Assembly: GCA_007117755.1 (NCBI GenBank)
Contig: SKFY01000014.1
Coordinates: forward strand, 1-45,333
Length of the DNA: 45,333 bases
Direction of reading: 5' to 3'
From: Candidatus Woesearchaeota archaeon
GTDB taxonomy: Archaea > Nanobdellota > Nanobdellia > Woesearchaeales > 21-14-0-10-32-9
Of the stretch, positions 25,089 to 45,333 are shown one piece after another; within the stretch, counting starts at the first letter, position 1, and each line of letters begins with the position of its first letter. The position numbers and the translations under genes are program-made. The notes under the pieces are model-generated. The model ran no database searches. It saw nothing but the letters and a program-made list of their open reading frames with translations, and was not told where the DNA came from.

Positions 25089-26717
25089 TTAATTAAATAT
25101 AAATGCGAAGTTAATTCTGAAACTTTTAGCTCTTTCCCAAAAATCTACTTTGTTTTTGTAAATATCTTTATTATCTATTACGTGATTATTAGATGCGCAG
25201 AATAAATAATGATTTTTCGTAGGTTGACAAGCTGATTTATTTATTTGAGCTTCACGCATATAAACAGTGTTGTTTTTAACCAGTAATTCTTCTACTCTGC
25301 TTTCTGCTATGTGAAAAGGAAAATTAGTTATTCCCGTTATAGTATTTAGTTTTATACTCGTATTCGTATCAATACTCACTCCTTTAAAAGAAATCATTGA
25401 ATTGTTAAACTCTAAGGTATCCATATAACCAGGAAGTGTTATGTTACAGCTACAATTACCAATACTCGTACTACAGTCTTTTATTTGACGAGCAACATCA
25501 CCTAATAAATATTCTATTCTATAACTAGCATTTGTGTACTCTCCTGCTTTAAATTGATTAAAACGATTAGGTACAATATCTAAGGTTTGTGTTCCTGTTT
25601 GAACACCTCCTTCAATAACTTCTTCAACGTCTGAAACGTTCAGGAATTCTAATGCGACGCCATTATCATATATTAATTCAACATCTCTTTCAAAGTCAAC
25701 TATGAAGACTTCATCATAATAACTATTATTGAAATAAGCTCTTTCTCCACCACTACCTTCAATGAAATCTATTAATTCTCCAGTCACGACTAAGAAATCG
25801 TCATTTGTTGATAAATTCCCGAGATTATAATCGCTTAAAGGACAAGATCTTGAAATACTAACATTCCTATTTCTTTCCAAAACTTCTTGAACACAATTAT
25901 CATAATCATCATTACAACTAGCATGTAAATCATCAACGAAATCAAAAACATCATTATAAAACAATCTCAAACCCCTTATTACATGGGTAAAAGAATAATC
26001 CCCGCGCAACATACCCATAACGGATCCTGACCTTGCGGAAGCACCAACTACATTAGCATTTTCATCTAATAAGTAAATACTAGGGAACATATTGTTAATA
26101 CGATCATCTAAAGCAGATTCATAACTAGTCCTACCCACACCTGTGTATACACCTATTTCGCAACTACCTCTATAATTAGCACCTGAATCTTCTGCTTTAT
26201 ATATTCCGTTCCAATCATTTCCATCGCCCCAATAAATATACACATAACTATTGATGGGTATGTGACAATTAGAATTAGGATCGTCATTAACAGATATGGT
26301 GAATTTAGCAGCGGGATCTGTACGTGTACTAGTAACTCCTTTGTCGAAATCGGCTTCTACTGAGCTTTCTTGTTCAACATCACTTATTGAACGCAAAGAA
26401 TAAACACCTCTGTTTGAAAATCCTCCTATTTCTTGACACATAACGTCTTCAAAAAAACCTCTTTCTTCAAAAGGAATGAAACACCAACCCCTGACACTAG
26501 CATCGAATTCTTCTCCTTTACCAGTACTCCAGTCATCATAATCCTGTCTGTCAGGAGTGTAATAAATAACGCTTTTAATATTAGTAAAGCTAGGTAAAAC
26601 TTCATCATTTTCAATAGTAGATTCTATTTCTCTTATTTGTTCACTACTAATATCAGCCGCGACTAAGGGTAATAATAAAAGTAAAGCCACTAATATTATC
26701 ATACTTGTTTTTTTCAA
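25089..26717 (-). CDS. secreted MltA/3D-domain-like (double-psi beta-barrel) putative murein lytic transglycosylase with an unknown ~300-aa C-terminal region
   Basis: Sec-type signal MKKTSMIILVALLLLLPLVAAD. IYYTP...GFFEDVMCQEIGG resembles MltA (YYEP...FF.QIQGSG). SVNDDPNSNCHIPINSYVYI...YKAEDSGANYRGSCEIGVYTG resembles the 3D domain (VAVDP..IP.G..V.I...A.DTGGAI.G..IDI). The TTG start overlaps the amidase stop (TTGA), with GGAGG 7 nt upstream. Confidence 0.5.
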   Translation of the reverse strand: MKKTSMIILVALLLLLPLVAADISSEQIREIESTIENDEVLPSFTNIKSVIYYTPDRQDYDDWSTGKGEEFDASVRGWCFIPFEERGFFEDVMCQEIGGFSNRGVYSLRSISDVEQESSVEADFDKGVTSTRTDPAAKFTISVNDDPNSNCHIPINSYVYIYWGDGNDWNGIYKAEDSGANYRGSCEIGVYTGVGRTSYESALDDRINNMFPSIYLLDENANVVGASARSGSVMGMLRGDYSFTHVIRGLRLFYNDVFDFVDDLHASCNDDYDNCVQEVLERNRNVSISRSCPLSDYNLGNLSTNDDFLVVTGELIDFIEGSGGERAYFNNSYYDEVFIVDFERDVELIYDNGVALEFLNVSDVEEVIEGGVQTGTQTLDIVPNRFNQFKAGEYTNASYRIEYLLGDVARQIKDCSTSIGNCSCNITLPGYMDTLEFNNSMISFKGVSIDTNTSIKLNTITGITNFPFHIAESRVEELLVKNNTVYMREAQINKSACQPTKNHYLFCASNNHVIDNKDIYKNKVDFWERAKSFRINFAFIFN

Positions 26718-27877: not shown

Positions 27878-27897
27878 CCTTTATTAATAACTTTTTT

Positions 27898-28440: not shown

Positions 28441-28447
28441 TTTATTT

Positions 28448-28906
28448 TCATATGTATAAATACGTAATTTTTAAAACTCCTATGCTACCATTTATAAAAA
28501 CGGGATACTCGAAAAATAATTGGTCACCGGTTAATAAAACCATTACGTTCTCAGTCTCAACATAACCTGTTTGTAAATCACCTGAAGAGTTAAAATAAGA
28601 ATACTCCACTATTAAACCACCTTCGAAACGACTTTTTAAAGGAATACAATCTTTAAAGTCTTCCTCGTTAAACTTGTTTAAATCTATACTGCCAAAACCA
28701 TGATTTTCATCAATCAAACAGTCTCTTAACAAAACAGATTCATAAATCTGATATTGAACAACAGGAAAAACCCCACTAGATAACTCACTAATATTACCCG
28801 CGTAAGCTGTAGAGAAAGAAAAAACAATAAGTAAAAAAGGCAACACAACTAATAAGAAGTAAAATAAGTGGTCAGCTTCAGTCATACTTAAAACGCCTTT
28901 TTTCAA
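28448..28906 (-). CDS. type IV pilin-like (class III signal) protein, function unknown
   Basis: The TTG start overlaps the upstream stop (TTGA), with GGAGG 7 nt upstream. N-terminus (M)KKG|VLSMTEADHLFYFLLVVLPFLLIVF. Confidence 0.55.
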   Translation of the reverse strand: MKKGVLSMTEADHLFYFLLVVLPFLLIVFSFSTAYAGNISELSSGVFPVVQYQIYESVLLRDCLIDENHGFGSIDLNKFNEEDFKDCIPLKSRFEGGLIVEYSYFNSSGDLQTGYVETENVMVLLTGDQLFFEYPVFINGSIGVLKITYLYI

Positions 28907-29688
28907 TTTGTAACCTCCATTATCTCATCAGCTAATGAAAAACTATAACGACTACCACTATATTCGTTAGGTAACCAAATAACTAAGATGTTCTCCATAA
29001 TAACTTCTTCACGATAACTATTAACACCCATTTCCCTCATGTTAGCACCTAAAAAACAACCAAGTTTACGGTACTCGGGGAAACGCTCAGGATACCTGAC
29101 CATAAAAGGACCGTCATGAAGACCGATAAATAAAAGTATGTCTGCTTGATGATCAAAAGTAGGTATTGGATAACCGTTAAAACCGAGATGATGATTGAGA
29201 TTCTCCACGAAATTAAAACTACCAACACCTATAGAATTTACTTTTACAATCCTATTATCTAAAATACCTGGTAAACTATTACAAAAAGATCTTAATTCAC
29301 CAATATCTTTAATCCCGAATTCTAATTCATCACCTTGCCTATAAATAGGTAAAGTAACACCTCTTTGAGATGTGAAACCAATTACTTCAACACCAGTAAA
29401 AGTTCTGAACTCACTCACGTCACTACCTTCCAAACTAGAAACCCTTACGCTATCACTACTTACAACCTCTAACAAATAATTAGGTCCTGCGCTATAAACA
29501 ATTTCTACGTCGCTACGCGAAGCAGTAACGGACTCTATTAATAAAGCTAAATCCCTGCTGAATAATTCTTCTTGACTAGAAACGCCGTAGTTTAGAAGAT
29601 TCATCATGCCAAATAATATCAGAGCGCCTATAGCTACGTTAAAGCCAGTAAAGAAAACCATTTGAACAGAATTTCCTTTTTTATTCAT
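28903..29688 (-). CDS. type IV pilin-like (class III signal) protein, function unknown
   Basis: I prefer ATG 29688 (GGAGG 6 nt upstream, TAATG overlap with the upstream stop) to the track's TTG at 29715. N-terminus MNKKG|NSVQMVFFTGFNVAIGALILFGMM. Confidence 0.55.
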   Translation of the reverse strand: MNKKGNSVQMVFFTGFNVAIGALILFGMMNLLNYGVSSQEELFSRDLALLIESVTASRSDVEIVYSAGPNYLLEVVSSDSVRVSSLEGSDVSEFRTFTGVEVIGFTSQRGVTLPIYRQGDELEFGIKDIGELRSFCNSLPGILDNRIVKVNSIGVGSFNFVENLNHHLGFNGYPIPTFDHQADILLFIGLHDGPFMVRYPERFPEYRKLGCFLGANMREMGVNSYREEVIMENILVIWLPNEYSGSRYSFSLADEIMEVTN

Positions 29689-30386
29689 TAAGAACCTCCT
29701 GGTGTTGGAGAACAATTATTATCGGAAGAAAAGCAAAAACTAATAACACCACCTTCTTTTTTAGTTAAATAAAAATAAGAGTCACGCACGAGATCATGAC
29801 GGATGCCGAAACTGTTAGTCCATTTAGCAGTATCTGCATCTGGATCGACAACATCCGGATTGACAACATCCTGATCGTCAGGATAAGCATCTTCAAACAT
29901 TATTTCTTCTTCAATAACATAGTTTTCAAAGGACAAACAAGAATACTCGCTGCAAGAATACTCTATAGTAATCATCTCACCATGTCTTTCATTAAATCTT
30001 TGCACTCCTTGATTACATAAACAAATACACAGATTATTAGAGTCGCAAGAACTAGGTTTAAAATTGCTTGTTACATCAGAAAAAAGATGACGATTGCGCG
30101 AAATAGCCAAAGGACCAGGCTTATAATCATATTCACTATCAGGGTTTAAAAAAACTATTTTTGAATCAGGCTTTAAACTAAATCTGAAAGACTCCGTGGA
30201 GCCTTCATCCATGCTAATTAAAGTTTCTTCTAAATAATTCGTGAAAATTTCTAATTCTGTAGTATCCTCTCCGAAGAAATAACTTCCTAAACGAACAGTG
30301 AAAGTACAGGAAGCAATAAATAAAGACATAAATAAAACTAGGCTTAATATCCTAAAATACATAGTGCTAGTCTGTCCTTTTCTCAA
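29688..30386 (-). CDS. type IV pilin-like (class III signal) Cys-rich protein, function unknown
   Basis: TTG start with AGAGGT 8 nt upstream. N-terminus (M)RKG|QTSTMYFRILSLVLFMSLFIAS. It contains a Cys cluster SSCDSNNLCICLCNQG...YSCSEYSC. Confidence 0.55.
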   Translation of the reverse strand: MRKGQTSTMYFRILSLVLFMSLFIASCTFTVRLGSYFFGEDTTELEIFTNYLEETLISMDEGSTESFRFSLKPDSKIVFLNPDSEYDYKPGPLAISRNRHLFSDVTSNFKPSSCDSNNLCICLCNQGVQRFNERHGEMITIEYSCSEYSCLSFENYVIEEEIMFEDAYPDDQDVVNPDVVDPDADTAKWTNSFGIRHDLVRDSYFYLTKKEGGVISFCFSSDNNCSPTPGGS

Positions 30387-30393
30387 AATAAAA

Positions 30394-30567
30394 TTACCTC
30401 TTTATTAAAAAAAATATTAGTAGTCCTAAATCAACATCTCCCGCGCCTGCTATACCTTCTAATAATCCTCCGCTGTGGTTAAATGCGAGGTATCCTAGTA
30501 GTAAAACTAGCAGTCCTAACACGAAATATATTAGTTCTTGTATTCCTAATGCACCTTTTTTTTTCAT
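30394..30567 (-). CDS. mini pilin-like ORF (57 aa; not in ORF track)
   Basis: Hand translation gives MKKKGALGIQELIYFVLGLLVLLLGYLAFNHSGGLLEGIAGAGDVDLGLLIFFLIKR. Its N-terminus closely parallels that of the 590-aa protein (KKAMGIREVIYWLIGIV). Confidence 0.5.
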   Translation of the reverse strand: MKKKGALGIQELIYFVLGLLVLLLGYLAFNHSGGLLEGIAGAGDVDLGLLIFFLIKR

Positions 30568-30620
30568 CACGTCATCACCCTTGTTGTTAAGTTATTAAAT
30601 CTTTTAATTTTTAAAACTTT

Positions 30621-32012
30621 TTAATTAAGCTCATCAAATGAAATATAGCCATAATTATCAGCATAACTTGCTACATTGGAGTTAGGAGGCCCTATGAAGA
30701 TTACTTCACCATTACCTCTAAATGCATCCTCAAGAATCCTGGAAACATCACCTCTAAATATAACTTCATTTAAGTTATTATCATCAAAAGCTTTTTCTCC
30801 TATAAGTTCTAAACTTTCAGGGAATTCAACCCTTGTTAAATTATTTGATCTGAAAGCAAAATCCCTTATTTCTTCAATATTATTCCCGAATTTGACTTCA
30901 GACAATTCATTCATACTAAAAGCATGAATACCTATAGACTTAATACTGTCTCCAAATTCAACTTTTGATAACTTATTTTCACTGAAAGCACCACTTGGAA
31001 TAGTATCAATTGTATCAGGAAACTCTACAGACTCTAAGTTTTTACGTTTAAAAGCGTCCTGAGCAAGTGCAACAACCGTTCTACCATCTATTTCCCGAGG
31101 AATTACTAAACGGGTTTGTGGAGGTGCATAATCGCTGAAACCCCAAACCGCGATAGAATTATCCCCCCGTGCAGAATACATAAAAATGTTATAACCTGCT
31201 AAATTTCTAGAATTATCATCACAAAACGCATCGTGTTCTATCATCCTTTTTTTTAAAGTGACAACATCATCAAAATCAGTATCTAAGCAACCTGGTCTTA
31301 TAATATCCCTAATAATAGGCATTGTTCTAGCAGGATCCCTACAAGCTGTAACGTGAGCATTCACCACTCTTCTCCCAGTTACGGGAATGAAACAAATATT
31401 ATCCTGGTTTTTTAATATGTATAAAAAATAATTGTGTGAATATCTATAATTTATTTTTTTTTTTTTTTCTAAAAGTAAGCTTTCCCATTCTTCAAAAGAT
31501 AAACTTTCAACACGTGAAAAATCTATATTAGATGGATAAAGACCTCTATTATAATCCCTAATTTCATCATATAAAGATTTGGCTTCTTGTTCTCCATAAA
31601 CTACGCAAGGTTTTAAATCGTTAAATTCATGACGTTGTATTACATTCTCCCCACTATAAAGTTCTAAACGAGTTACTGAATTTTCCTCTTTTAAACTTAT
31701 AGAGAAATCATTGTCAAAAAAACTCTTGTGAAAAATATCAATTACTCCAAAACAAAAATTTTCATCAGACTCCACCACGTTTGTTAATTGATTGCGAAAA
31801 CCCGAGAATACATCCATAGCATCACGCTGATCCATAACTATAACTTCTCTACCCCCTCCGGATCTACTACGCTCAGAAAAATCTAAAAAATCAATTGCCC
31901 TATCAAAAGTAGGTAATAAGCCAGACTGTATACTGTTAAAGATGAATATTAAGAATAAGACTACTATAACTGCGGATACAAGCGTTACAGCACTCAAACC
32001 TTTTTTATTCAT
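30621..32012 (-). CDS. class III signal protein with C-terminal BspA-type leucine-rich repeats
   Basis: N-terminus MNKKG|LSAVTLVSAVIVVLFLIFIF. The C-terminal ~140 aa hold ~23-aa repeats (FPDTIDTIPSGAFSENKLSKVEF / GDSIKSIGIHAFSMNELSEVKF / GNNIEEIRDFAFRSNNLTRVEF / PESLELIGEKAFDDNNLNEVIF). Confidence 0.7.
   Translation of the reverse strand: MNKKGLSAVTLVSAVIVVLFLIFIFNSIQSGLLPTFDRAIDFLDFSERSRSGGGREVIVMDQRDAMDVFSGFRNQLTNVVESDENFCFGVIDIFHKSFFDNDFSISLKEENSVTRLELYSGENVIQRHEFNDLKPCVVYGEQEAKSLYDEIRDYNRGLYPSNIDFSRVESLSFEEWESLLLEKKKKINYRYSHNYFLYILKNQDNICFIPVTGRRVVNAHVTACRDPARTMPIIRDIIRPGCLDTDFDDVVTLKKRMIEHDAFCDDNSRNLAGYNIFMYSARGDNSIAVWGFSDYAPPQTRLVIPREIDGRTVVALAQDAFKRKNLESVEFPDTIDTIPSGAFSENKLSKVEFGDSIKSIGIHAFSMNELSEVKFGNNIEEIRDFAFRSNNLTRVEFPESLELIGEKAFDDNNLNEVIFRGDVSRILEDAFRGNGEVIFIGPPNSNVASYADNYGYISFDELN
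30692..31115 (-). repeat. protein-level LRR (BspA/LRR_5-type) repeat block inside the CDS
   Basis: About 5-6 units with the ..I..IG..AF....L..V.F periodicity. Confidence 0.65.
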
Positions 32013-32146
32013 CCGAACGTTACCTCTATCAAATTAAAAAATTCTCCACTTAATGTGTATATGAAATATATTATTACGGCAAGGGTAATAGCTATAGCAA
32101 CCCATTTTCCTAATTCACTAAATAATATATTGGCTTTTTTATTCAA
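32009..32146 (-). CDS. mini pilin-like ORF (45 aa, TTG start; not in ORF track)
   Basis: (M)NKKANILFSELGKWVAIAITLAVIIYFIYTLSGEFFNLIEVTFG. Its TTG overlaps the upstream stop (TTGAATAA) and its TGA overlaps the downstream ATG (ATGA). Length is 138 nt in frame. Confidence 0.45.
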   Translation of the reverse strand: MNKKANILFSELGKWVAIAITLAVIIYFIYTLSGEFFNLIEVTFG

Positions 32147-33473: not shown

Positions 33474-33573
33474 TCACCCTGGCAGCTATTATTAGTATAG
33501 CTCCACATACTAAAATAGTTAATATAATTATCATTAATTGTTCTAAACTCATTAATCCTTTTTTTTTAACCAT
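33457..33573 (-). CDS. mini pilin-like ORF (38 aa; not in ORF track)
   Basis: MVKKKGLMSLEQLMIIILTILVCGAILIIAARVIGIGV is a class III-type N-terminus and helix only. Its 3' end overlaps the start of the next gene. Confidence 0.45.
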   Translation of the reverse strand: MVKKKGLMSLEQLMIIILTILVCGAILIIAARVIGIGV

Positions 33574-33623
33574 AACTTTCTCATTATGAATAGTCATAGA
33601 AGTGGTATTTAAAAGTTTCTTAA

Positions 33624-35668: not shown

Positions 35669-35935
35669 TTATTGTGGTACACAACAAACTTCTCCATCAG
35701 GACATGAATAGCTAGGAGCTCTAACGTACGTAACATCTGGATTAGCTAGTGTTAATTCTTCACAACCTAGTTCTACTGGTTGACACTGAGCATCTCTTTC
35801 TAGAGAAACACATCTAGTTCCTTCGAAGACACTAGAACCTGCATTGAATACTAAAACTGCTAATATAACAAGTACTATCATAGCTAACGCCGCTGCTACG
35901 ACAACATTAAGACTTAATTCTGCTTTTTTAAACAT
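35669..35935 (-). CDS. small type IV pilin-like protein with a six-cysteine knob (candidate major subunit)
   Basis: 88 aa. MFKKA|ELSLNVVVAAALAMIVLVILAVLVF, then RCVSLERDAQCQPVELGCEELT...YSCPDGEVCCVPQ. GAGGTG lies 7 nt upstream of the ATG. Confidence 0.6.
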   Translation of the reverse strand: MFKKAELSLNVVVAAALAMIVLVILAVLVFNAGSSVFEGTRCVSLERDAQCQPVELGCEELTLANPDVTYVRAPSYSCPDGEVCCVPQ

Positions 35936-36527: not shown

Positions 36528-37003
36528 TGAACACTAACCTCTAATATTGCAAAATAAGTTTTTTTATCTACGGGATGATAAACATTAATTGGATAAAAAG
36601 TTCTTTCTATACGCCTATTTTCTTGTAAATTATCAAAGAAGTTTATTGATTCATTGATTTGAAGAGTGGTGTTTAAATCATCATATATTATCAATGTTAA
36701 GTTAACATTGCCCATTCTTCTTATGTAATAAGGGTCGTCTTGTAAATTCTTAAAAGCTTTAACTTTAAAATAATCAAAGCATTTGTAACCTATAGTAGCT
36801 ACTTCACTTGTACAAGTGAATTCTTCCATGTTAGATATTCTTAAACTGGTGCTTAAAATGTCTAGATCAGACTCGTCTTCTAGTAAAGATTGTGTCTGGG
36901 TAGTTCTGAAATTGGATAAATAAACTAATCCTATGATTATTAAAATCATTACTATTATAACTACGGTTATTGATTCCCCGCTTTGAATTTGTGCTTTTTT
37001 CAT
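36524..37003 (-). CDS. type IV pilin-like (class III signal) protein, minor-pilin candidate
   Basis: MKKA|QIQSGESITVVIIVMILIIIGLVYL; 159 aa. Confidence 0.55.
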   Translation of the reverse strand: MKKAQIQSGESITVVIIVMILIIIGLVYLSNFRTTQTQSLLEDESDLDILSTSLRISNMEEFTCTSEVATIGYKCFDYFKVKAFKNLQDDPYYIRRMGNVNLTLIIYDDLNTTLQINESINFFDNLQENRRIERTFYPINVYHPVDKKTYFAILEVSVQ

Positions 37004-38383: not shown

Positions 38384-38384
38384 T

Positions 38385-41300
38385 TTATATCTTTTTTAGT
38401 TTGTCAAAAATCTCATCTTGAGATAAAGATTCGAATTCATCAGATTTTTTATCAGAATCAGATTTTTTAGAGGTTTTGCTTTTGTCAGAGTCAGATTTGG
38501 ATTCAGTCTTTTTTTCTTGTTTTTTAGTTTGAGAAGAAGACGAAGAGGATGAAGAGGCTGAAGAAGTTGAAGATGATGAAGACGAGCTTGTTTTTTTAGA
38601 CGAATCACTAGACTGAGATTCAGAACTTGATTTAGAGCCAGACGTGGTTTTATCACTAGATTGTTGTTTCTTAGCAGACGAGCTTGTTTTTTTATCTTTA
38701 GATTCGAACTCTTTGAACAATTTCTTTCTCGTGTCTAATCTGTTTTTTAAAGCCATTTTAGCTTTTCTTTCTCTTTCTTCAGTCACACTAATATCTTCTA
38801 CTTTTTCAAGTTGCACCTTGTTAGGAGATTCTTCAAATTCTTCTATATTCTTATTAAGACCAGGAGATGAATTAATACTACCCCCCCTACTTCCTCCTTT
38901 TTTTTGCTTATTATAATAATCAAATATTATCAATCCTAAGCCTATTAAGAAGCTTATTAAAGCTAACACCCACATAAGTTTAGAATCTCTTTCAGTGACA
39001 TCTTCAACAATAGTGTCTTGTCTAGGCGTTGTACAAATATTGTTTTCACAATAACCAGTTATACAGTCACTGTGCTGTTGACATTTCTGATCCACGTTAC
39101 AAGGTTCACAAGGACCTCCACAATCTATATCAGACTCACCCTGATTCTTAATACCATCAAAGCAAGAAGCAGCAGCACAAATACCATCTTCACAGTTCAA
39201 GCTTTCACAGTCACTATCCACAAAGCAAGACCTGCCCTCTGTACAAGCTACGCAGTTAGGTCCTCCACAATCTATATCAGACTCACCCTGATTCTTAATA
39301 CCATCAAAGCAAGAAGCAGCAGCACAAATACCTTGAGGATTACAATAGCCAGAGTCACAATCTTCATCAGCTGTACAAGTATTGCCTGTGCTACAAGGTT
39401 CACAAGGACCTCCACAATCTATGCCTGTTTCTCCAAGGTCCGCATCCATTCTATTGTTGAAACAATGTGGAGGATATTCGAAAGTTACGATTTCTGAATT
39501 ATTAAATTCGTTATTGTTTTTGTCTTGTACAGAGTAACAAACCCTAGCAGTGCTGCTTAGTGTGAAGAATCCTGTATTAGCCATTATGTTCTTATCAAAA
39601 GTACATTCTTCGTCTAAATCTTTATGGATGCTATACCTGGCTTGTTCATCACAACCACTGTGATCATCATGACACATAACACTTATTTCATAGGTTCCGT
39701 CCGCTCTCAAGTTTTTATCAAGTCTTCCAAGAGGAGGTGTGAAGTCACATCTTATATTTTCTGGTTCTAATACTCTGGAGAATCTTTGACTCCAGTCGCC
39801 GTAGTTGCCAGCTTTATCAACGGCTCTGACTATTATTTGAACTTCTTCTCCAATTATAGATTCTCTGTCGAAGACAAGTCTGTCAATTGGTACATTAGCA
39901 GACCTTGATGAAGTGGTACGATTATAAAATACTGACTCGTTATACTCGTTATCGTAAACAGCTACGCTATATTCGTAATGGTCAATTCCTGAAATCCTAT
40001 CTTCAGCTCTGAAACTAAAGCTTATGGTATCTCCACAAATATTGTCATCTAGTGTTATGTTTACTTCTGAAGGTTTGGAAGTGTCTCTTAAAACGTTTCT
40101 AGCAACTACGTTATCAAATTGCGCGTTTTCACAATAAGCTCTTATTGTGTGTCTTCCTAATTCAAAGTTTTCTTGAGCTGTGTAAACATTAATACCCTCT
40201 ACATAGCTAGGATCGTCAAATCTTACGAATGAATCCGGAGTGTTGTTATTAATAGAATAGTAACAAGTATCTCTTAGTACTGTTTCCAGAATTATTTCTT
40301 GAGATTCTTCGTTGAAGTGAGTAGGTGGAGCTACTATTCTGATTACTTGATCCTCACTCATATCAGATGTTAAAGTCGCAGTCCTAGAATTTTCTAAGCC
40401 CGCAAGGTTAGTACACGTAACGGTTATGTCAAAATCTCTAGTTTCTGGTATTATTTCTGAGAATACGTTTTCTTCGTCGTAAGTAGTGCTGAAGTCAGTT
40501 AAGTATGATGGTTGTGACTGCGCACTTCTTTGGAATCCACCTTCTAACAATCCTTCAACTTCTAGCTGTAAACTATTCAAAGTACAGTAACTAGGAATAT
40601 TAGTCTCTACAATTGTTTCAAAGCTTTTCCTATTAGTATCAGTTACTGTTTCAGGATCGAATTCTAAAGTATCAATGCTTGGAGGATTAGGGTATGAACC
40701 AACAGCAATGCTAGCGTAGTGATGCCAGTTAATACTTTCTTCATAACACACTATGTTAAGAGCGTATGTTCTTTCCTCGCTTAGTTCTCCAAGTGAGAAG
40801 TTTGTAGCTGTGTGTATTCTTCCATTAGGTGTGAATTCATTAGAGTAATCTGCGTATAATTGTGAAGGCGCTCTGTTTTGAGTGTTACCTAAGCTATATT
40901 TACAATGTACGTCTTCTCTTTCTGTTTCTATAACAATATCATAACTGGACTCTTCACTAAATGCGAAGTTAGGATTTTCTATAGGTGTAGTTAAAGGCTC
41001 TAACACTACTACTTCTAAAGTATCCATACCTGCTCTTTCTACACAGAATTGATCATTAGGATCTCTTAAAGTGACTGTTCTGTCAACAATATTTCCTTTG
41101 TTGCCAGATTCAGATACAGCTCTTACTAATATGGTTAAGTCTGTTTCATGATAATCAAGGCCGCCGTATAATTCATTAAGATCGACACTTAACACTCCTT
41201 GTTCTCCTTCTACGATTTCATCTCTTAAAACATTGTTATTCGCCCCTGTTAAAACATATTCGTAGTGAGAAATTTCTGAGTATAAAGATTCGGCTTCGAA

Positions 41301-44300
41301 AGTCATGTCTAACACTTCAGTACATACATCATCCTGAACCCTTATGAATGTGTCATAAGGAGGTTGGTTATCAACTAGTACTGTTTGACTTATAACATTA
41401 GGATCTCTTTCACACATAGCATATACAGTGTTATAACCTGATTCTAATTGTAAGCGAGTAAAGTATAAGTGTTCTTCCATATCAACACTGGACAAGTCTA
41501 TTACTTCTTCACTTCCAGAGTCCATACCTGAGAATAGAGTTTCTGCTAATTGTTCTATGTTGAAATAATGCTCTAGATAATCTTCGAATTCTTGGAAATT
41601 ATTAGTATCTCCTATAGAGTATAAACAATTATCTTCAACAGTGGCTTGTAATAATAATGGAACTACATCACTTGTTGAAAATTCAGATACTAATATGTCA
41701 AAGCTTTGAGTCGTAGTCATGTCAGTTCTTAAATTTTTAACTACTGAACTTGTTAAGCCACTTAAGGATTCACAAGTTAAATTAATAGGGAACTCTCTAG
41801 GCGTGGTTAAAGGATCTTCAAATCTCTTACTTAATTCTTCATATTCTGTTCTGTAATCATCTAAGTTTATAGGTGTGAAAGAAGGATTTCTTATGAAACC
41901 ACCCATGGTTAATTGTTCTAATTCTTCACTTTCAAATCTACAAATAGTAGGTATGTCTGAGTAAGCAAATAAGTTATAACTTCTTCCTATACCATCTTTT
42001 ATTAATTCTGGAACGAGGAATAATTCTATTTCTGGTTCGTCAGGGTAAAACCCTGTTCTTATAGTATCTCCTTTGTATTGTCCGAATTCATCAGTACAAA
42101 TAATTGTTAAGTCATAAATTTGATTAACACCTTCAAGTCCTAAGCTTAAATCTTCTAATACGAAGAGTACATCACTGACTTTTTCTAAAGTGTTTAAAGG
42201 ATGGTTTCTGAATTCTCTTTCGAACTCATCTTCAGATAAGGATAAGAAGTTATACCTACATTCCTCTACAGGTCTGTGAGTTCTTATTTTTATATCAAAT
42301 ACTTCTTCATGACTAAATGCTAAATCAGTTATGCCGTAAGGATTTCTAGGCTCTTCTACTTTTATATCTAAATAATCGTAACCTAATTCTTCTAAGCATG
42401 TTTGAGACGCCGCTGGGTGTATGAATATTTCATCACTCACTCTTTGTCCTTTGTTGCCTAATTTGTCTATTGCTGAAGCAAATGCTTGGATTGTGAATCC
42501 TTCGTAAACTTTTCTGTTACCAGCTGTGTTAAATAGTTCTAAAACGTCTATATCTGTTTGTTGTGTGAATCCACTTCTTACTATTTCGTTGTTGTCTGTA
42601 TGAGTGGCTATTATTTCATATTCATAATTTTCTATACCTACTCCTTCATCGAAGGCGTTTAGTAATTCTAACTGTATGTTGTTTAAACAGTTGTCTTTTA
42701 AATTCACTTCTAAACCTACAGGTCCTTGGTCATCACGATAAGCCCATGTTGTTATGGTTTCTTCATCGTCACACCAAGCACTTATTGTATTGTTACCTCT
42801 TTGTATGTTGAAGTTTGCTGAATAAACAAGGTCTTCTCCTAATACTAATTGTTTTTCTACTCCCCCTGTTTGGGCTCTACAACTCATGTCATCTCTGAAG
42901 CCTCTGATTTTTACGTCTACATTATCTTGTTTTGTGTAATGCCCGCTTTGCAAGTCTCCTATGAATGTGTAATTAGTGTTGAGAGTCATGTCTGTAGATA
43001 CAACTGCTCTTTCTGTTGAGTGAAGACCGCTTAAAGAGTAACAAGTAATGTCAATATTGAATAATCTGTTACTTGGTATGTATTCTTCAAAGACATTATT
43101 TTCTTCATATAAAGTGTTGTAGTTTTCAACACTTGTTGTTATTAAATAAGCGTTGTTGAAATCACTTCTTAATTCATTAGCTAATAAAGCATCAGGTTCT
43201 GCGAAACAATAACTAGGGATGTCTGTTTCAGTTGACACCTTAAAGCTTCTAATAAGGCCACTAGTTATAGGTGAAGGAATAATTTCTACGTTCATAGTAG
43301 GTTCTTCATAGGCGCCTACCAATATTTTTTCTCCGAAGAATAAGTCTATGAATTCTGTTGATTCTCTACATATTATGAATAATTCTTCAGCATCTCCTAC
43401 GAATAATTCTTGTACGGAGTGTTGTAATCCGTTAATTGATTCTAGAACTTGCTGACTATAAGTTCCGTAAGTAAAGGATAAGTTTCTGCCAAATCCTTCA
43501 AAGCCATATCTACAATCTACGCTCCTATCAGTTCTTAGTGTTAAATCAATAGATTCGTCAGGGCTGAAAGCGTTAAGTTCTTCTACGTATTCATTAGTAG
43601 GGTTTAAAATTTCTATGTTTAAGCTGTCTAGTTGTCTTTGTCTTAAACAATAATCAGAATTGACTTCTTGTACTAAGAAATCAGTAGATAAAGAATCTCC
43701 TTTATTGCCTAATTTGTCAACGTTACGAGCTTCAACTCTTAAAACACCACCTTCTAGGCTAGCTCTGTTGCTTAAGCCTAGTTTTTCTAAGGCGCTAAAT
43801 TCTGAAGTTGTAAAGCCTTTAGCAGAGTGAGAGTTAGATCCATAAGTAAATGTTAAGTCGTATTCGTAATGTTCAAATCCTATACCTGTATCTATTCCTC
43901 CACGGAATTCGACAGTTATATCATTTACACAATCATCAAATATATTCGCGTCAATACCTGTTGGTCCTCTATCGTCTTTGTAAACCCAGGTGTTAATATT
44001 ATTACCGTTACAAATTACGTCTACAGAGTAATTTCCATAATTGTTAAAGTTAAATGCTGAAGAGTAAATTCTTAAGTTATTATTGACTGATTCTGATAAT
44101 GTGCCTGTGCTTTCACCATTAACTGTGTAAGAACAAGACATTCCCGGAACTAAAGATTCTACAACGATGTCTAAGTCGTCTGTGAAGAATACTTCTGAAG
44201 AGCTTGATGCGAACCAGAAATCAGTAGTGTCTGTCATGTTAGATATTAATAATGTGCTTGCTGTAGAGCTCTGACTTGATAAAGAGTAACACGTTACGCT

Positions 44301-45333
44301 TGCAGGGAATGTCGTGTAGTCTTCTAAATAATCGCTTATTTCTGTTTGTATGGAGTAAGTGTTTTGGTAATCGCTTAGAGTAGTGGGATTATATGAAGTT
44401 CTTGAAAATGAGTTTTTAACAGATGCACTTATTAATTCGTCTGCTTCAAAGATACAGTAACTTGGCACATCAGTAGTTACTTTTAATTCATATGCTCTGT
44501 TTGCTAAGTGTGAAATTTCTGTAGGTATGAATTCAAAGCTTTCTATGATAGGAGCTTGGTAAGTTCCTACTTTAATACCTTTATATCTGTAATAAGTTTT
44601 TTGTGAGTACGGGTCTGATTCTCTACAAATAATGTGGAGAACTTCGTTATTTTCCACGTCTAAATCAGTGGTTGTGTGAGTTAGGCCGTTCTTGTTGAAA
44701 GTATTGGCTGCGAAGTTTCCGAAGCTTCTGTTAAGGTTGCTTTGATCGAAGTAGTCAAAGCCGTACCTACATTCTTCTACTGCTCTTTCTGTTCTAATGG
44801 TTAAATCAAATACTTGTTGGTCGTGGTAAGCGTTAACTTCTTCTATGTAAGGATTCGTGGGTGATTCTACTATTATGTCTAATCCGCTGTATCCTCTGAC
44901 TCCTTCACAATAAGGTGCTAGTACGTTTTCTATTTCTGTGTTTTCTGTTATTTCTGCGTAGTTTCCTATTTCATCTATAGCTTTTAATTGGATTGTTAAT
45001 GTTCCTTCTATTTCGTTTCTTGTTTTTCCTAGTATTTCTAGTACGTTTATAGTTGGTGAATTAGGATTGGCAGATCCTTCTTTTTCTTGTTGACCGTTTA
45101 AGCTTAAGGTGTAGTTGAATCTTTGTATTTCAGCGAATAATGTTTGGTCAGCATCGAAAGTTGCTGTTATAGATCCTCTACAATCATCAACTACTTCTAT
45201 GCTTAGATTGGTTGGTGGTTGATCGTCTCTTATTACTGTTCTTGATACTGATTCATAGCTTCCTGGTTCTCCACAATAAGCCACTATTGTATTTTCTCCA
45301 CGGGCGAAGTCACGTGTTGCTCTGAATTCGTGC
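38385..45333 (-). CDS. giant modular surface protein (5' end outside the window): at least 5 large modules, three Cys-rich repeats, a TM helix and a Ser/Lys-rich tail
   Basis: The frame stays open to the window edge. The track's 'M' at 45284 is an internal GTG; upstream codons read ...HEFRATRDFARGENTIVAYCGEP with no stop. More than 2,315 aa are visible. See the repeat features and findings. Confidence 0.85.
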   Translation of the reverse strand, partial: HEFRATRDFARGENTIVAYCGEPGSYESVSRTVIRDDQPPTNLSIEVVDDCRGSITATFDADQTLFAEIQRFNYTLSLNGQQEKEGSANPNSPTINVLEILGKTRNEIEGTLTIQLKAIDEIGNYAEITENTEIENVLAPYCEGVRGYSGLDIIVESPTNPYIEEVNAYHDQQVFDLTIRTERAVEECRYGFDYFDQSNLNRSFGNFAANTFNKNGLTHTTTDLDVENNEVLHIICRESDPYSQKTYYRYKGIKVGTYQAPIIESFEFIPTEISHLANRAYELKVTTDVPSYCIFEADELISASVKNSFSRTSYNPTTLSDYQNTYSIQTEISDYLEDYTTFPASVTCYSLSSQSSTASTLLISNMTDTTDFWFASSSSEVFFTDDLDIVVESLVPGMSCSYTVNGESTGTLSESVNNNLRIYSSAFNFNNYGNYSVDVICNGNNINTWVYKDDRGPTGIDANIFDDCVNDITVEFRGGIDTGIGFEHYEYDLTFTYGSNSHSAKGFTTSEFSALEKLGLSNRASLEGGVLRVEARNVDKLGNKGDSLSTDFLVQEVNSDYCLRQRQLDSLNIEILNPTNEYVEELNAFSPDESIDLTLRTDRSVDCRYGFEGFGRNLSFTYGTYSQQVLESINGLQHSVQELFVGDAEELFIICRESTEFIDLFFGEKILVGAYEEPTMNVEIIPSPITSGLIRSFKVSTETDIPSYCFAEPDALLANELRSDFNNAYLITTSVENYNTLYEENNVFEEYIPSNRLFNIDITCYSLSGLHSTERAVVSTDMTLNTNYTFIGDLQSGHYTKQDNVDVKIRGFRDDMSCRAQTGGVEKQLVLGEDLVYSANFNIQRGNNTISAWCDDEETITTWAYRDDQGPVGLEVNLKDNCLNNIQLELLNAFDEGVGIENYEYEIIATHTDNNEIVRSGFTQQTDIDVLELFNTAGNRKVYEGFTIQAFASAIDKLGNKGQRVSDEIFIHPAASQTCLEELGYDYLDIKVEEPRNPYGITDLAFSHEEVFDIKIRTHRPVEECRYNFLSLSEDEFEREFRNHPLNTLEKVSDVLFVLEDLSLGLEGVNQIYDLTIICTDEFGQYKGDTIRTGFYPDEPEIELFLVPELIKDGIGRSYNLFAYSDIPTICRFESEELEQLTMGGFIRNPSFTPINLDDYRTEYEELSKRFEDPLTTPREFPINLTCESLSGLTSSVVKNLRTDMTTTQSFDILVSEFSTSDVVPLLLQATVEDNCLYSIGDTNNFQEFEDYLEHYFNIEQLAETLFSGMDSGSEEVIDLSSVDMEEHLYFTRLQLESGYNTVYAMCERDPNVISQTVLVDNQPPYDTFIRVQDDVCTEVLDMTFEAESLYSEISHYEYVLTGANNNVLRDEIVEGEQGVLSVDLNELYGGLDYHETDLTILVRAVSESGNKGNIVDRTVTLRDPNDQFCVERAGMDTLEVVVLEPLTTPIENPNFAFSEESSYDIVIETEREDVHCKYSLGNTQNRAPSQLYADYSNEFTPNGRIHTATNFSLGELSEERTYALNIVCYEESINWHHYASIAVGSYPNPPSIDTLEFDPETVTDTNRKSFETIVETNIPSYCTLNSLQLEVEGLLEGGFQRSAQSQPSYLTDFSTTYDEENVFSEIIPETRDFDITVTCTNLAGLENSRTATLTSDMSEDQVIRIVAPPTHFNEESQEIILETVLRDTCYYSINNNTPDSFVRFDDPSYVEGINVYTAQENFELGRHTIRAYCENAQFDNVVARNVLRDTSKPSEVNITLDDNICGDTISFSFRAEDRISGIDHYEYSVAVYDNEYNESVFYNRTTSSRSANVPIDRLVFDRESIIGEEVQIIVRAVDKAGNYGDWSQRFSRVLEPENIRCDFTPPLGRLDKNLRADGTYEISVMCHDDHSGCDEQARYSIHKDLDEECTFDKNIMANTGFFTLSSTARVCYSVQDKNNNEFNNSEIVTFEYPPHCFNNRMDADLGETGIDCGGPCEPCSTGNTCTADEDCDSGYCNPQGICAAASCFDGIKNQGESDIDCGGPNCVACTEGRSCFVDSDCESLNCEDGICAAASCFDGIKNQGESDIDCGGPCEPCNVDQKCQQHSDCITGYCENNICTTPRQDTIVEDVTERDSKLMWVLALISFLIGLGLIIFDYYNKQKKGGSRGGSINSSPGLNKNIEEFEESPNKVQLEKVEDISVTEERERKAKMALKNRLDTRKKLFKEFESKDKKTSSSAKKQQSSDKTTSGSKSSSESQSSDSSKKTSSSSSSSTSSASSSSSSSSQTKKQEKKTESKSDSDKSKTSKKSDSDKKSDEFESLSQDEIFDKLKKI
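39115..39185. repeat. copy 1 of a perfect 71-nt direct repeat
   Basis: cctccacaatctatatcagactcaccctgattcttaataccatcaaagcaagaagcagcagcacaaatacc is identical to 39262-39332. Confidence 0.9.
39262..39332. repeat. copy 2 of a perfect 71-nt direct repeat (offset 147 nt = 49 codons)
   Basis: Identical string to 39115-39185. Both copies encode GICAAASCFDGIKNQGESDIDCGG. A diverged third copy lies at ~39408-39430. Confidence 0.9.
39735..45333 (-). repeat. protein-level tandem modules of ~415-455 aa (diverged at the DNA level)
   Basis: Module starts are marked by a recurring anchor: RDDQPP (nt ~45230), KDDRGP (~43979), RDDQGP (~42737), VDNQPP (~41375) and RDTSKP (~40088). Each anchor is followed by ..DD.C......F......G.-.YEY, D-x-x-GN-x-G, NPY...VFDL.IRT.R.VEECRY, IIC.E, (D)IPSYC and TC.SLSGL landmarks. 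The tail of a further module sits at the window edge. Confidence 0.8.

Follow-up and report, generated by a model that had tools for sequence, protein, structure and literature searches.

The window analysed here, 45,333 nucleotides of a contig (SKFY01000014.1) from a Candidatus Woesearchaeota archaeon of the tiny, symbiotic type, carries 19 tightly packed open reading frames on its minus strand from position 25089 to the window end, spanning about 20 kb and matching the one-strand count of the original prediction. Sixteen encode at least 75 aa; the remaining three are small and fill apparent gaps at 30394-30570 (58 aa), 32009-32146 (45 aa) and 33457-33597 (46 aa). With these counted in, neighbours overlap by 4-28 nt or lie 1-76 nt apart. 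The predicted spacing of 0-50 nt or overlap was correct as to the overlaps but slightly too tight at its upper limit, because the largest gap, between 35935 and 36012, measures 76 nt. The features are listed below, with arrows marking the predicted processing position.

38385..45333, minus: giant surface protein, at least 2315 aa present, N-terminus cut off by the contig end
37913..38383, minus: p156, core pilin-like protein 1, MRKS↓QVQQVFIYLMVIL, one N-terminal TM segment
37028..37876, minus: p282, core pilin-like protein 2, 282 aa, MFNKA↓QIEISFNWVFVLVAGAAIL, conserved N-terminal motif
36524..37003, minus: p159, core pilin-like protein 3, MKKA↓QIQSGESITVVIIV, L009 orthologue at E=1e-11
36012..36527, minus: p171, core pilin-like protein 4, MRKKS↓QMEIVGLLIIVIL, L009 orthologue at E=7e-4
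35669..35935, minus: small pilin of 88 aa whose Cys-rich knob ends in VCCVPQ, aligns with the small-pilin family
35404..35643, minus: 79-aa small Cys-knob pilin, paralogue of the 88-aa protein
33624..35396, minus: 590-aa protein with a class-III-like N-terminus, KKA↓MGIRE (E at +5), a Cys knob and a long beta-rich extension
33457..33597, minus: 46-aa helix-only pilin-like ORF, KKKG↓LMSLEQL (E at +5)
32139..33473, minus: 444-aa modular pilin-like protein, YRKG↓LTRK, weak TPM domain
32009..32146, minus: 45-aa helix-only pilin-like ORF, MNKKA↓NILFSE
30621..32012, minus: 463-aa modular pilin-like protein, MNKKG↓LSAV, C-terminal BspA-type leucine-rich repeat
30394..30570, minus: 58-aa helix-only pilin-like ORF, MMKKKG↓ALGIQE
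29688..30386, minus: 232-aa pilin-like protein, MRKG↓QTST, L004 homologue at E=7e-9
28903..29715, minus: 270-aa pilin-like protein, MNKKG↓NSVQ, homologues in L002 and L004
28448..28906, minus: 152-aa pilin-like protein, MKKG↓VLSM, homologues in L002 and L004
27898..28440, minus: 180-aa pilin-like protein, GKKG↓IMEK, homologue in L002
26714..27877, minus: 387-aa amidase-bearing pilin-like protein, NNKKG↓VVTL, class-III-like N-terminus and Amidase_2
25089..26717, minus: 542-aa secreted protein, Sec-type signal MKKTSMIILVALLLLLPLVAADI, near aa 150-200 a probable degenerate 3D domain (DPBB, MltA/YuiC-like)
23929..24975, minus: RPA-like OB-fold gene, conserved downstream neighbour of the array, not a pilus part

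Seventeen of the array ORFs begin with a short basic stretch followed by [KR][GAS] and a single hydrophobic segment, with no further TM segment. The residue at -1 is G in nine, A in six and S in two; S at this position is not part of the classic archaeal class III rule (FlaFind). When a rule of our own was applied in place of FlaFind, requiring [KR][GAS] and then a 14-residue window whose mean hydropathy is > 2.0, 16 of 18 array genes were flagged, compared to 2 of 37 other genes in the window (Fisher p=7e-10). The 46-aa ORF was absent from the gene set tested, and adding it gives 17 of 19, in agreement with the predicted 17 prepilin-like signals. The two ORFs that had been set apart were again distinct: that at 25089-26717 has an ordinary Sec-type signal, and for the giant ORF the window contains no N-terminal signal.

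The conserved N-termini look like a processing site under selection and not like generic signal anchors, as had been proposed. The p282 family is large (an exhaustive HMMER search gave 785 clusters with E<=1e-3, of which 156 reach E<=1e-10) and its N-terminus is almost invariant, [KR][GA]↓Q-x-E-x-S/Q-F-N-W. Among 149 distant homologues, 121 matched the anchored pattern; of these, 113 had G or A at -1 and 81 had Q at +1. A K/R-G/A/S↓Q pattern also marks the other core families, with consensus sequences of [KR][GAS]↓Q..Q(V/I)F(I/V)Y for p156 (35 metagenome loci, in which its gene lies between those of the giant protein and p282), [KR][GAS]↓QI(Q/K)xGE(S/T)I for p159 (66 loci) and [KR][GAS]↓Q(M/A/F)EI(M/L/V)GL for p171 (49 loci). 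The small pilins share [KR][GAS]↓QG(L/I)S(L/I)NTIIIAAI..., four conserved Cys and a terminal CC; relatives carry one to three tandem copies after p171, and in motor-containing loci the family adjoins the A24 peptidase gene. The K/R-G/A↓Q site is identical to those at which EppA has been shown experimentally to process the Epd pilins of Methanococcus (KGQ/RAQ; PMC4371748). Judged from their sequences, the 17 motif-bearing array proteins would undergo class III cleavage.

Conserved gene order in relatives had been set beforehand as a test, and it holds strongly. The array is widely distributed among uncultured archaeal relatives: the order giant protein, p156, p282, p159, p171, small Cys-knob pilins, amidase and RPA-like gene recurs in Woesearchaeota MAGs and in dozens of metagenome contigs. 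The run from the giant gene to p171 was found in 17 of the 35 loci with enough upstream DNA, and a giant homologue precedes p156/p282 in 24 of 35 metagenome loci. Where enough downstream DNA was available (18 loci), 8-17 consecutive motif-bearing genes were present in 13 and the amidase in 7. In locus L009 (Woesearchaeota) collinearity extends from p282 past the amidase as far as the RPA-like gene, which follows the array also in L004, L159 and L169 and lies near an A24 peptidase gene in L005, L008, L013 and L014. A chimeric contig was also considered and can be dismissed for this locus, as the independently assembled L001 (ENA) and L169 (Logan) share this gene set and gene order.

The giant ORF lacks an upstream stop codon and runs past the contig end, so its N-terminus is missing. 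What is present consists of 4.5 repeats of about 420-450 aa, which start at aa 35, 452, 866, 1320 and 1749 and align with one another by blastp at E-values between 1e-66 and 2e-38. They are followed by three CGGPCEPC-type Cys-rich modules, each about 50 aa long, then by a TM helix (nt 38922-38978) and a 178-aa Ser/Lys-rich cytoplasmic tail. For the proposed Ig-like modules Pfam finds no Ig domain, and neither Pfam nor the PDB gave any match to the giant protein in the window. Its homologues carry Big_13, Big_6 and TSP3 domains, and that of L090, complete at 2344 aa, starts with a Sec signal.

Several of the pilin-like proteins carry additional modules. The leucine-rich repeat was confirmed in the 463-aa protein (LRR_5, 1.5e-27), whose L002 homologue is without it. 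The 444-aa protein gave a weak match to TPM_phosphatase (Pfam, 5e-5), and its residues 6-133 match pilin-like proteins of 245-258 aa in the ATPase-containing loci L005, L013, L014 and L008 (E 4e-5 to 3e-7). The 590-aa protein has a partial homologue in L002 and a weak Wzt_C-like carbohydrate-binding match below the Pfam cutoff (1.4e-4). The helix-only ORFs also recur: L002 has, at the corresponding position, a 39-aa ORF with 56% identity to that of 46 aa, as well as a 61-aa ORF with 66% identity to that of 58 aa, and the position of the 45-aa ORF is taken by ORFs of 44-48 aa in L099, L159 and L170.

Of the two predicted murein hydrolases, the Amidase_2 domain stood firm and the MltA/3D assignment stood only in part. 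In the 387-aa protein a module of about 170 aa and unknown fold precedes Amidase_2 (aa 214-372; Pfam 9e-30), for which the closest solved relative is AmpDh2 (4e-12). H222, E262, H360, K367 and D369 are invariant in alignment A1, and by sequence the domain keeps its zinc and catalytic residues. AF2 was confident for the amidase domain only and gave no usable model of the N-terminal module. Both collinear arrays and motor-containing loci include homologues that share its N-terminal motif. The 542-aa protein had no match in Pfam, NCBIfam, PHROG or the PDB, with Pfam failing to find 3D even at E<=10; its backing comes solely from a 531-aa L004 homologue (E=5e-51, 28% identity) in which 3D scores above the cutoff (2.3e-8). 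A degenerate 3D domain at about aa 150-200 is thus probable. One of its three signature Asp residues is replaced and the protein may be inactive.

As the original prediction said, profile searches found no T2SSE ATPase, T2SSF platform or A24 peptidase within the window, and none of the three lies within 10 kb of any of 80 related metagenome arrays. The connection with a motor is therefore drawn from a sister type of locus. In L005, L006, L013, L014 and L008 an amidase homologue is found in a group of 8-10 genes bearing this N-terminal motif, which is flanked by a 762-764-aa ATPase (T2SSE 4e-12, NCBIfam FlaI 8e-37, afGspE 2OAP in the PDB 2e-27; CpaF and FlaI are also matched) and a peptidase (Peptidase_A24 8.5e-14, FlaK 1e-9). 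Homologues of the amidase and of the 444-aa N-terminus share Pacearchaeota/Woesearchaeota/Nanoarchaeia loci with these two genes, and arrays and motor loci have in common the amidase-pilin, the p248/444-aa N-terminal module and the small Cys-knob pilin. Because the FlaI/TadA-like ATPase, a 9-TM membrane protein and the A24 prepilin peptidase surround the amidase homologue in Pacearchaeota/Woesearchaeota relatives, the array reads best as subunits and effectors of an archaeal type IV filament whose motor genes lie elsewhere. The 9-TM platform candidate shows no T2SSF/FlaJ/TadC signature. Archaeal pilin genes are commonly encoded away from the motor (PMC4371748).

The claim of a pilus-like apparatus was upheld in part, by motif, synteny and the ATPase/peptidase context of homologues but not by any match to a known pilin profile or fold. 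No array protein matched a known pilin family profile, and comparison with PDB pilins gave no match by sequence or by solved fold. For p282, Pfam, NCBIfam and PHROG were negative; in its AF2 model (pLDDT 92.3) a 53-residue N-terminal helix leads into beta sheets and a helical C-terminus, a predicted layout resembling that of pilins in general, and Foldseek found no fold match in the PDB (best E 0.48, TM below 0.16).

We consider it somewhat better than an even bet that the array is an operon encoding the structural subunits and effectors of an archaeal type IV filament (TFF/T4P-like) system, one that within DPANN would be specific to Woesearchaeota/Pacearchaeota. In such a system, the A24-family peptidase would cut the 17 precursors after [KR][GAS], freeing an N-terminal hydrophobic helix as the assembly interface, and a FlaI/TadA-like ATPase with a polytopic membrane platform, encoded elsewhere in the genome, would extract and polymerise the subunits into a filament. 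The small Cys-knob proteins (88 and 79 aa) would be the likely bulk subunits, with the 88-aa protein the candidate major pilin. The p156-p282-p159-p171 quartet would be a minor-pilin set that primes or caps the filament, perhaps as a tip complex, and may couple it to the Sec-exported, C-terminally anchored giant adhesin encoded just upstream. The larger modular pilins would display the LRR adhesion module, the TPM domain and the Amidase_2 murein amidase, accompanied by the Sec-secreted 3D-like protein. The archaeon itself is presumed to be without murein, and its wall enzymes would therefore target a bacterial partner, acting at the contact site to fix the contact or gain access by breaching the wall. 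If this reading is true, the filament probably serves for gripping and locally opening bacterial cells.

The array had been called undescribed, which applies to part of it. Both dark-matter islands of 'diverse pilins' (PMC6393860) and murein hydrolases (PMC8204110, PMC9723730) have already been published for DPANN, but neither the fusion of a pilin-like protein to a murein hydrolase nor the conserved core array was found in the literature searched, and within that literature both are new. Modular pilins have precedents in bacteria, as does a tip complex of four minor pilins and PilY1 (PMC8179133).

The array fills the minus strand from position 25089 to the end of the complete public contig (45,333 bp). 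The original prediction of a one-strand array of 19 genes, 17 of them with class III-like signals, was borne out by inspection of ORFs and N-termini and by the enrichment of the signal motif described below. The 19 ORFs lie back to back, 16 of them are at least 75 aa long, intergenic spacing ranges from -28 to +76 nt and the only sizeable gaps are occupied by three ORFs of 45-58 aa. The GC content of the array is similar to that of the remaining contig (contig GC about 0.31). Housekeeping-type archaeal genes were recognized on the contig from their translations (an RPA-like OB-fold protein, Hjc-like and NAC-like ORFs and a MinD/ParA ATPase), and an M48 peptidase and RNase Z are also encoded. 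The members of the array that concern us, from the contig end downward, are the following.

38385-45333, minus strand: giant protein, N-terminus missing
37913-38383, minus strand: core pilin-like protein 1 (p156)
37028-37876, minus strand: core pilin-like protein 2 (p282)
36524-37003, minus strand: core pilin-like protein 3 (p159)
36012-36527, minus strand: core pilin-like protein 4 (p171)
35669-35935, minus strand: putative small pilin, 88 aa
35404-35643, minus strand: putative small pilin, 79 aa
33624-35396, minus strand: 590-aa protein
33457-33597, minus strand: 46-aa protein
32139-33473, minus strand: 444-aa protein
30621-32012, minus strand: leucine-rich repeat (LRR) protein
29688-30386, minus strand: 232-aa protein
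26714-27877, minus strand: amidase protein, 387 aa
25089-26717, minus strand: 3D-like protein, 542 aa

Seventeen of the 19 ORFs share a common plan: a basic leader of 3-17 residues ending in [KR][GAS], one strongly hydrophobic segment and no further TM helix. Scored with a simple rule of our own rather than with FlaFind, the motif and its hydrophobic segment were present in 16 of 18 array genes and in 2 of 37 other genes of the contig (Fisher p=7e-10), and the motif was absent from the other N-terminally anchored proteins of the contig. Ser is found at -1 in two array genes. Gln occupies +1 in five window proteins (p156, p282, p159, p171 and the 232-aa protein), Glu occupies +5 in two (the 590-aa and 46-aa proteins), and several others have Glu at +3 or +6. 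The last gene of the array (25089-26717) encodes a classical Sec signal. Searches of Pfam, NCBIfam and PHROGs gave no match for 14 of the 19 array proteins, and an exact-sequence lookup of p156 was also negative.

A word-indexed search with p282 matched only itself, suggesting an orphan, a view that was overturned by an exhaustive HMMER scan, in which the family comprised 785 representative clusters at E<=1e-3 and 156 at E<=1e-10. The N-terminus of the p282 family is strikingly conserved, with [KR][GA] before the predicted cleavage point and Q-(L/V/I)-E-(I/V)-(S/Q)-F-N-W-(I/V)-F-(V/I)-L-I-A-G-A after it. An anchored pattern of our own fits 121 of the 149 homologues listed; in those 121 the -1 position holds G 58 times, A 55 times and S 7 times, and Q stands at +1 in 81. 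Most homologues of p156, p159, p171 and the small pilins also have Q at +1, and in every core family the leader and N-terminus are conserved in a form of their own, always with K/R-G/A/S followed by Q. An AlphaFold2 model of p282 built from 100 homologues (pLDDT 92.3, pTM 0.84) contains one unbroken helix (residues 8-60), two blocks of beta-sheet (67-190) and a helical C-terminal part. A long N-terminal helix followed by sheet is the generic layout of a pilin, and the pilin fold of p282 is accordingly a putative one. Foldseek found no significant match to this model in the PDB, pilin or other (best E 0.48, TM below 0.16), so the globular part would be either novel or too diverged, and it may be a new fold.

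Small pilins measure 80-135 aa and combine the N-terminus [KR][GAS] followed by QG(L/I)S(L/I)NTIIIAAI.L.VLVVL with a short knob that is rich in Cys and has CC at its end. In the window, this design recurs in the 88-aa and 79-aa proteins and in the N-terminal part of the 590-aa protein. No Pfam pilin or Class III signal profile matched the window proteins or members of the p282 and small-pilin families, and a sequence search of the PDB with the small-pilin profile found no pilin. A 76-aa ORF at 9518-9748 on the plus strand, 16 kb away from the array, begins with MKKS followed by VKIILLIFIILIVV and has a Cys-rich C-terminus ending in ACCPE; it resembles a stray copy of a small Cys-knob pilin.

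A metagenome scan seeded with the p282 family yielded 368 confirmed relatives, and 80 of these loci were mapped by local blastp. The recurrent core order is giant, p156, p282, p159, p171 and then one to three small pilins. Where at least 3 kb lay upstream (35 loci), giant, p156 and p282 followed one another in 17, and the giant stood directly before p282 in 7. Where at least 9 kb lay downstream (18 loci), 13 carried 8-17 consecutive motif-bearing genes, and an amidase homologue was reached in 7 of the 18. The named MAGs with the system belong to Woesearchaeota, Pacearchaeota and Nanoarchaeia. The Woesearchaeota locus L009 (ARS106) is collinear with the window, running from p282 across 19 genes that bear the motif, with the amidase gene as the last, to a Sec-signal protein and an RPA-like gene; the closer relatives L004, L002 and L170 have the same order. 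The array is therefore syntenic in relatives, and the chimeric contig that had been considered as a source of error is rejected because independent assemblies agree. In L170, malic enzyme and MsrA genes on the opposite strand (12939-14601) lie amid the otherwise collinear array.

The first gene of the array encodes the giant; it has no upstream stop and is cut by the contig end. The protein contains 4.5 internal repeats of 420-450 aa, followed by three Cys-rich modules, a TM helix (nt 38922-38978) and a Ser/Lys-rich tail of 178 aa. A nearly identical second assembly, L001, also breaks within the giant gene (L001 1-803), which fits the internal repeats. The ending of two assemblies inside this gene is probably due to the repeats of about 1.3 kb (30% amino-acid identity) and to the low-complexity Ser-rich tail. 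A match to OmpL47 was below threshold, Pfam detected no hydrolase domain in the window giant, and a sequence search of the PDB gave no match. The C-terminal beta-propeller of PilY1/PilC (Neisseria_PilC/IPR008707) had no Pfam match in the window giant or in four homologous giants. In L170, an 81-kb ENA contig and the closest long relative, three proteins of 986-1186 aa stand in place of the single giant gene.

Pfam recognized three domains in the array and no others. The BspA-type LRR_5 repeat was matched in the protein at 30621-32012 (1.5e-27, 96 bits against a cutoff of 27.7), which also matches two PHROG families of unknown function; a TPM domain was weakly matched at 32139-33473; and Amidase_2 was matched at 26714-27877 (9e-30, 104 bits against a cutoff of 26). 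The original expectation of adhesive and lytic cargo was largely right. The nearest relative of the amidase in the PDB is the periplasmic amidase AmpDh2. Residues H222, E262, H360, K367 and D369 are invariant in ten homologues, and we take them, by analogy to AmpD, to be the zinc ligands and catalytic set of the Amidase_2 fold; judged by the alignment, this set is intact. In NCBIfam and PHROGs the domain matched AmpD and endolysins only (PHROG endolysin 2e-18). AlphaFold2, given 10 sequences, modelled only the enzyme domain and produced no resolved model of the N-terminal 190 residues. When genome contigs were scanned with the amidase alignment, most matches were bacterial AmpD-like genes, and the archaeal ones were confined to L009, L013, L014 and a short L015.

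Of the two murein hydrolases originally proposed, the amidase was confirmed by Pfam as an Amidase_2 domain and the second, of MltA/3D type, was claimed with too much confidence. The protein at 25089-26717 had no match to a 3D/MltA profile in Pfam even at E<=10, a word-indexed homology search with its 542 aa matched only itself, and a sequence search of the PDB with the 3D-like profile found nothing. It aligns (E=5e-51) with a 531-aa protein in the same position in L004 (3983-5578), and that homologue matches Pfam 3D above the cutoff (34.5 bits against 23.8). In the pairwise alignment the central Asp of the 3D signature is kept ('AEDSG'), the first position is Asn in both proteins, and the last Asp (MDIY in L004) is Glu-Ile in the window protein (EIGVY). 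Because this Asp is replaced and the protein has no profile match of its own, we call it 3D-like, and its activity is uncertain. In Woesearchaeota-type arrays the gene after the amidase encodes a different Sec-signal protein that is not 3D-like (L009 9719-11500, with an fn3 match of 2.7e-6; L116 19294-20822; L159 19312-20271), so the accessory secreted protein varies among lineages.

Profile searches agreed with the original observation that the 45-kb window contains no ATPase, platform protein or A24 prepilin peptidase, and none of the 80 related arrays had one at a distance of up to 10 kb. Separation of pilins from their motor is not unusual in archaea, since pilB/pilC are not the neighbours of the pilA genes in Haloferax or of some pilin genes in Methanococcus (PMC4371748). 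Distant homologues of the amidase protein (about 30% identity, same KKG leader) occur in a second type of locus, found in Pacearchaeota (L005, L006, L007), Nanoarchaeia (L013), Woesearchaeota (L014) and in L008. In order, these loci carry two 5-TM and two coiled-coil proteins, a 762-764-aa ATPase, a 2-TM protein and a 720-742-aa 9-TM protein. There follow 8-10 motif-bearing genes, among them those for the amidase protein and for a small pilin containing Cys, then a 282-aa Peptidase_A24 and, a few genes on, RPA-like and RadA genes. The principal coordinates, with those of the RPA-like genes beside the arrays, are listed here.

L005, 2515-4803: ATPase
L008, 2923-5217: ATPase
L013, 2297-4585: ATPase
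L005, 5468-7696: 9-TM protein
L008, 5261-7423: 9-TM protein
L013, 5244-7424: 9-TM protein
L014, 1763-3946: 9-TM protein
Window, 23929-24975, minus strand: RPA-like gene
L004, 5621-6649: RPA-like gene
L009, 11542-12531: RPA-like gene
L159, 20352-20813: RPA-like gene
L005, 14982-17007: RPA-like region
L008, 15151-17259: RPA-like region
L013, 14021-16498: RPA-like region

The ATPase belongs to the T2SSE family (Pfam 4e-12; NCBIfam FlaI 8e-37), and its best PDB match is afGspE (2OAP, 2e-27), followed by CpaF and FlaI; in L014 only an ATPase fragment is present, upstream. An extension of about 280 residues precedes the region that aligns to solved ATPases. The peptidase, with 282 aa and 5-6 TM helices, matches A24 (8.5e-14) and also FlaK, and is present in L005, L008, L013 and L014. 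No T2SSF/FlaJ/TadC signature was detected in the 9-TM protein in Pfam, NCBIfam or the PDB, and by its sequence it would be either a very diverged platform or a different protein. Between this platform candidate and the pilin genes of the Woesearchaeota type IV pilus locus L014 lies a gene for a 377-aa protein (4001-5134) with a borderline Peptidase_M23 match (2.2e-6; 28.2 bits against a cutoff of 28.7), which would be a further type of murein hydrolase in such loci. Residues 6-133 of the window's 444-aa protein match a pilin-like protein of 245-258 aa of the second-type loci (E about 4e-5 to 3e-7). On these alignments, the window array and the type IV pilus-type loci have at least three subunit families in common (the amidase, the N-terminal part of the 444-aa protein and the small pilin); relative to the second type, the window array adds the giant and the four-gene core and is without a motor in cis.

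These shared families bear on whether the N-termini are processed at all. If they were uncleaved signal anchors, the array would encode a type II membrane-anchored surface coat with attached enzymes, unrelated to type IV filaments. The original claim of a pilin-like nature is open to attack here, as neither a pilin profile nor a PDB fold supports it, none of the 80 related arrays has motor genes nearby, and positive residues ahead of a TM helix are expected in any signal anchor. The claim was nonetheless judged largely right. Simple anchors leave unexplained why several unrelated families, and hundreds of homologues that have diverged otherwise, keep G/A at -1 and Q at +1 almost without exception, the homologues with the same motif that sit between the ATPase and the A24 peptidase in sister lineages, and the absence of the motif from the other N-terminally anchored proteins of this contig. 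We regard the signal-anchor explanation as improbable.

In every lineage examined, an RPA-like OB-fold gene stands after the array or after the gene for the A24 peptidase; in the motor-containing L005, L008 and L013 it is in turn followed by RadA. The RPA-like neighbourhood is kept across distant lineages. In the window, an ABC-2 permease gene (21984-23906, plus strand) converges on the RPA-like gene just downstream of the array; a long insert of about 300 aa on the extracytoplasmic side of the permease is acidic and coiled-coil-like and gives weak ATG17_like and MscS_porin matches. The constancy of the RPA-like neighbour, and of RadA in the three sister loci, would suit a competence-like pilus for DNA uptake, in which murein hydrolases free DNA or nucleotides from lysed bacteria and RPA-like protein and RadA handle the incoming DNA; DPANN archaea lack nucleotide synthesis (the available part of PMC8204110). 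RPA and RadA are, however, archaeal housekeeping genes, neither a ComEC-like channel nor a DNA-binding pilin was seen, and the 113 nt between the array and the RPA-like gene are accompanied by no functional tie between them, making this explanation very improbable.

The same neighbourhood weighs against an integrated virus or mobile element whose endolysin would be the amidase. The endolysin matches of the amidase domain and the orphan status of most of the genes are of the kind expected from such an element, but PHROGs matched only the amidase and LRR proteins, there are no tRNA genes, and none of the proteins scanned matched an integrase, capsid or terminase. The GC content is like that of the contig. 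Given no hallmark genes and a conserved RPA-adjacent chromosomal neighbourhood across distant lineages, we rejected a viral or mobile origin, to which we give almost no chance.

Taken with the conserved motif, the synteny, the families common to motor loci and the intact catalytic residues, all of which are observed, the array is on balance probably, if only just, the subunit and effector operon of an archaeal type IV filament whose motor is encoded elsewhere. The A24 peptidase would cut the precursors after [KR][GAS], and the FlaI/TadA-like ATPase and a membrane partner, encoded elsewhere, would assemble the subunits. The small Cys-knob pilins would form the shaft. The four core proteins would be minor pilins that start or cap the filament and may, by analogy to FimU/PilVWX-PilY1, connect it to the giant adhesin encoded immediately upstream. 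The larger proteins would be modular pilins displaying the LRR, TPM and amidase modules, and the substrate would be bacterial murein, from the specificity of the amidase (MurNAc-L-Ala) and the 3D-like protein. How the subunits are processed and assembled, in what stoichiometry, and which bacterial target they act on are all points that we infer. A more ambitious form of the filament reading, which we hold tentatively and would not expect to prevail, is that DPANN of the Woesearchaeota/Pacearchaeota type use an amidase-bearing type IV filament and a DPBB hydrolase, guided by the four-pilin complex and the giant adhesin, to grip a bacterium and open its wall locally. If true, this would be a cross-domain machine for attachment of an archaeon to a bacterium and for entry, and the first enzyme-armed archaeal pilus.

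Class III processing could also serve surface display, with the array forming a short, membrane-rooted pseudopilus or bindosome-like scaffold for enzymes and binding modules that would serve mainly to recover murein fragments, amino sugars and peptides from the remains of bacteria and not to attack a living partner. Many members of the array are large and modular and few are small pilins. Functional proteins with class III signals have a precedent in the sugar-binding proteins of Sulfolobus (PMC4371748), the peptidoglycan of dead cells has been suggested as food for Pacearchaeota (PMC11537232), and the NCBIfam bindosome ATPase model matches the relatives' ATPase, although weakly (5.5e-20) and far below its cutoff. 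Tandem small Cys-knob pilins and a conserved core of four minor-pilin-like genes are nevertheless typical of true filaments, and the presence of a giant adhesin and of an LRR module suggests contact between cells. We consider a display scaffold rather unlikely.

For most Woesearchaeota and Pacearchaeota no host has been named to our knowledge, and it is still debated whether bacteria serve any archaeon as host or prey. The easily recognized conserved set (giant adhesin, four core families, small Cys-knob pilins and amidase-bearing pilin) would provide a molecular handle on this question. Its genes could be used as markers for metatranscriptomics and FISH-guided cryo-ET, and the murein specificity of the amidase could indicate the type of host. 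The set also brings in several large families (about 785 clusters for p282 alone) that have no Pfam, NCBIfam or PHROGs profile, p282 with a confident fold and no PDB match. The filament reading would carry the principle of the modular pilin from bacteria to archaea and add a lytic enzyme as cargo. The locus is a well-defined, widespread and testable candidate for the long-sought host-interaction apparatus of Woesearchaeota and Pacearchaeota, built from a known type of machine.

Among known systems, the EppA-processed Epd pili of Methanococcus maripaludis are like the array in having K/R-G/A followed by Q at +1 (KGQV, KGQI, RAQI), and in needing several minor pilins, in the location of some pilin genes apart from the motor and in a short major pilin (PMC4371748). 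Gln at +1 is a requirement of EppA, and Epd-type pilins often have Glu at +5. An archaeal TFF of this type ('system 1') has been reported in DPANN (bioRxiv 10.64898/2026.04.22.720090). However, the array proteins showed no similarity to Epd pilins in sequence or profile, the peptidase of the sister loci has 282 aa and is of the short, FlaK-like kind rather than the large EppA (about 9 TM), the sister loci have one membrane protein of 720-742 aa rather than two platform genes, and the giant adhesin and murein amidase are without an Epd counterpart. Because no Epd or class III profile matched and the sister peptidase is FlaK-like, we leave the array outside the Epd class. Makarova, Wolf and Koonin (2019) considered unannotated signal-bearing genes beside FlaI/TadC in DPANN to be probably diverse pilins; the available part of that paper (PMC6393860) does not mention the amidase fusion, the giant with its four-gene core, the family sizes or motor-detached arrays.

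Castelle et al. (2021) and Vigneron et al. (2022) described giant murein transglycosylases in Pacearchaeota and Woesearchaeota and proposed bacterial hosts or prey (available part of PMC8204110; PMC9723730). These large lytic enzymes (fam00969; GH23) are extracellular giants of the same lineages, whereas here Amidase_2 is carried by a 387-aa pilin-like protein accompanied by a 3D-like protein, with no SLT/GH23 domain; a link of the transglycosylases to pilin arrays is not reported in PMC9723730 or in the available part of PMC8204110. The ability of archaeal peptidoglycan hydrolases to kill bacteria was shown by Strock et al. (2025), who considered only Sec/Tat signals. In the open-access literature we found no murein amidase on a class III-signal protein within a pilin array, nor the conserved giant and four-family core or the size of the families; description elsewhere is possible.

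The Saccharibacteria (CPR) offer a case for comparison, as ultrasmall episymbionts with several pilin sets whose type IV pili find and bind a bacterial host (available parts of PMC9894109 and PMC11623550); their machinery and pilins are bacterial, and the function of our array is putative. The tip complex of bacterial type IVa pili (FimU/PilV/PilW/PilX with PilY1/PilC; PMC8179133) resembles the four-gene block beside a very large, non-pilin surface protein with a Sec signal. This is an analogy only, with no homology detected, and the array's giant differs in being anchored by a C-terminal TM helix. Another parallel is offered by the modular type IV pilins, such as PilB and PilC of Streptococcus sanguinis and about 1,200 bacterial examples, in which a class III signal and helix are followed by a grafted domain, as with the LRR, TPM and amidase modules here; enzyme modules, e.g. 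peptidases, are known among the bacterial proteins (PMC8179133). In contrast to these, the array is archaeal, and its putative pilin module carries as a graft a murein amidase in an organism presumed to be free of murein.
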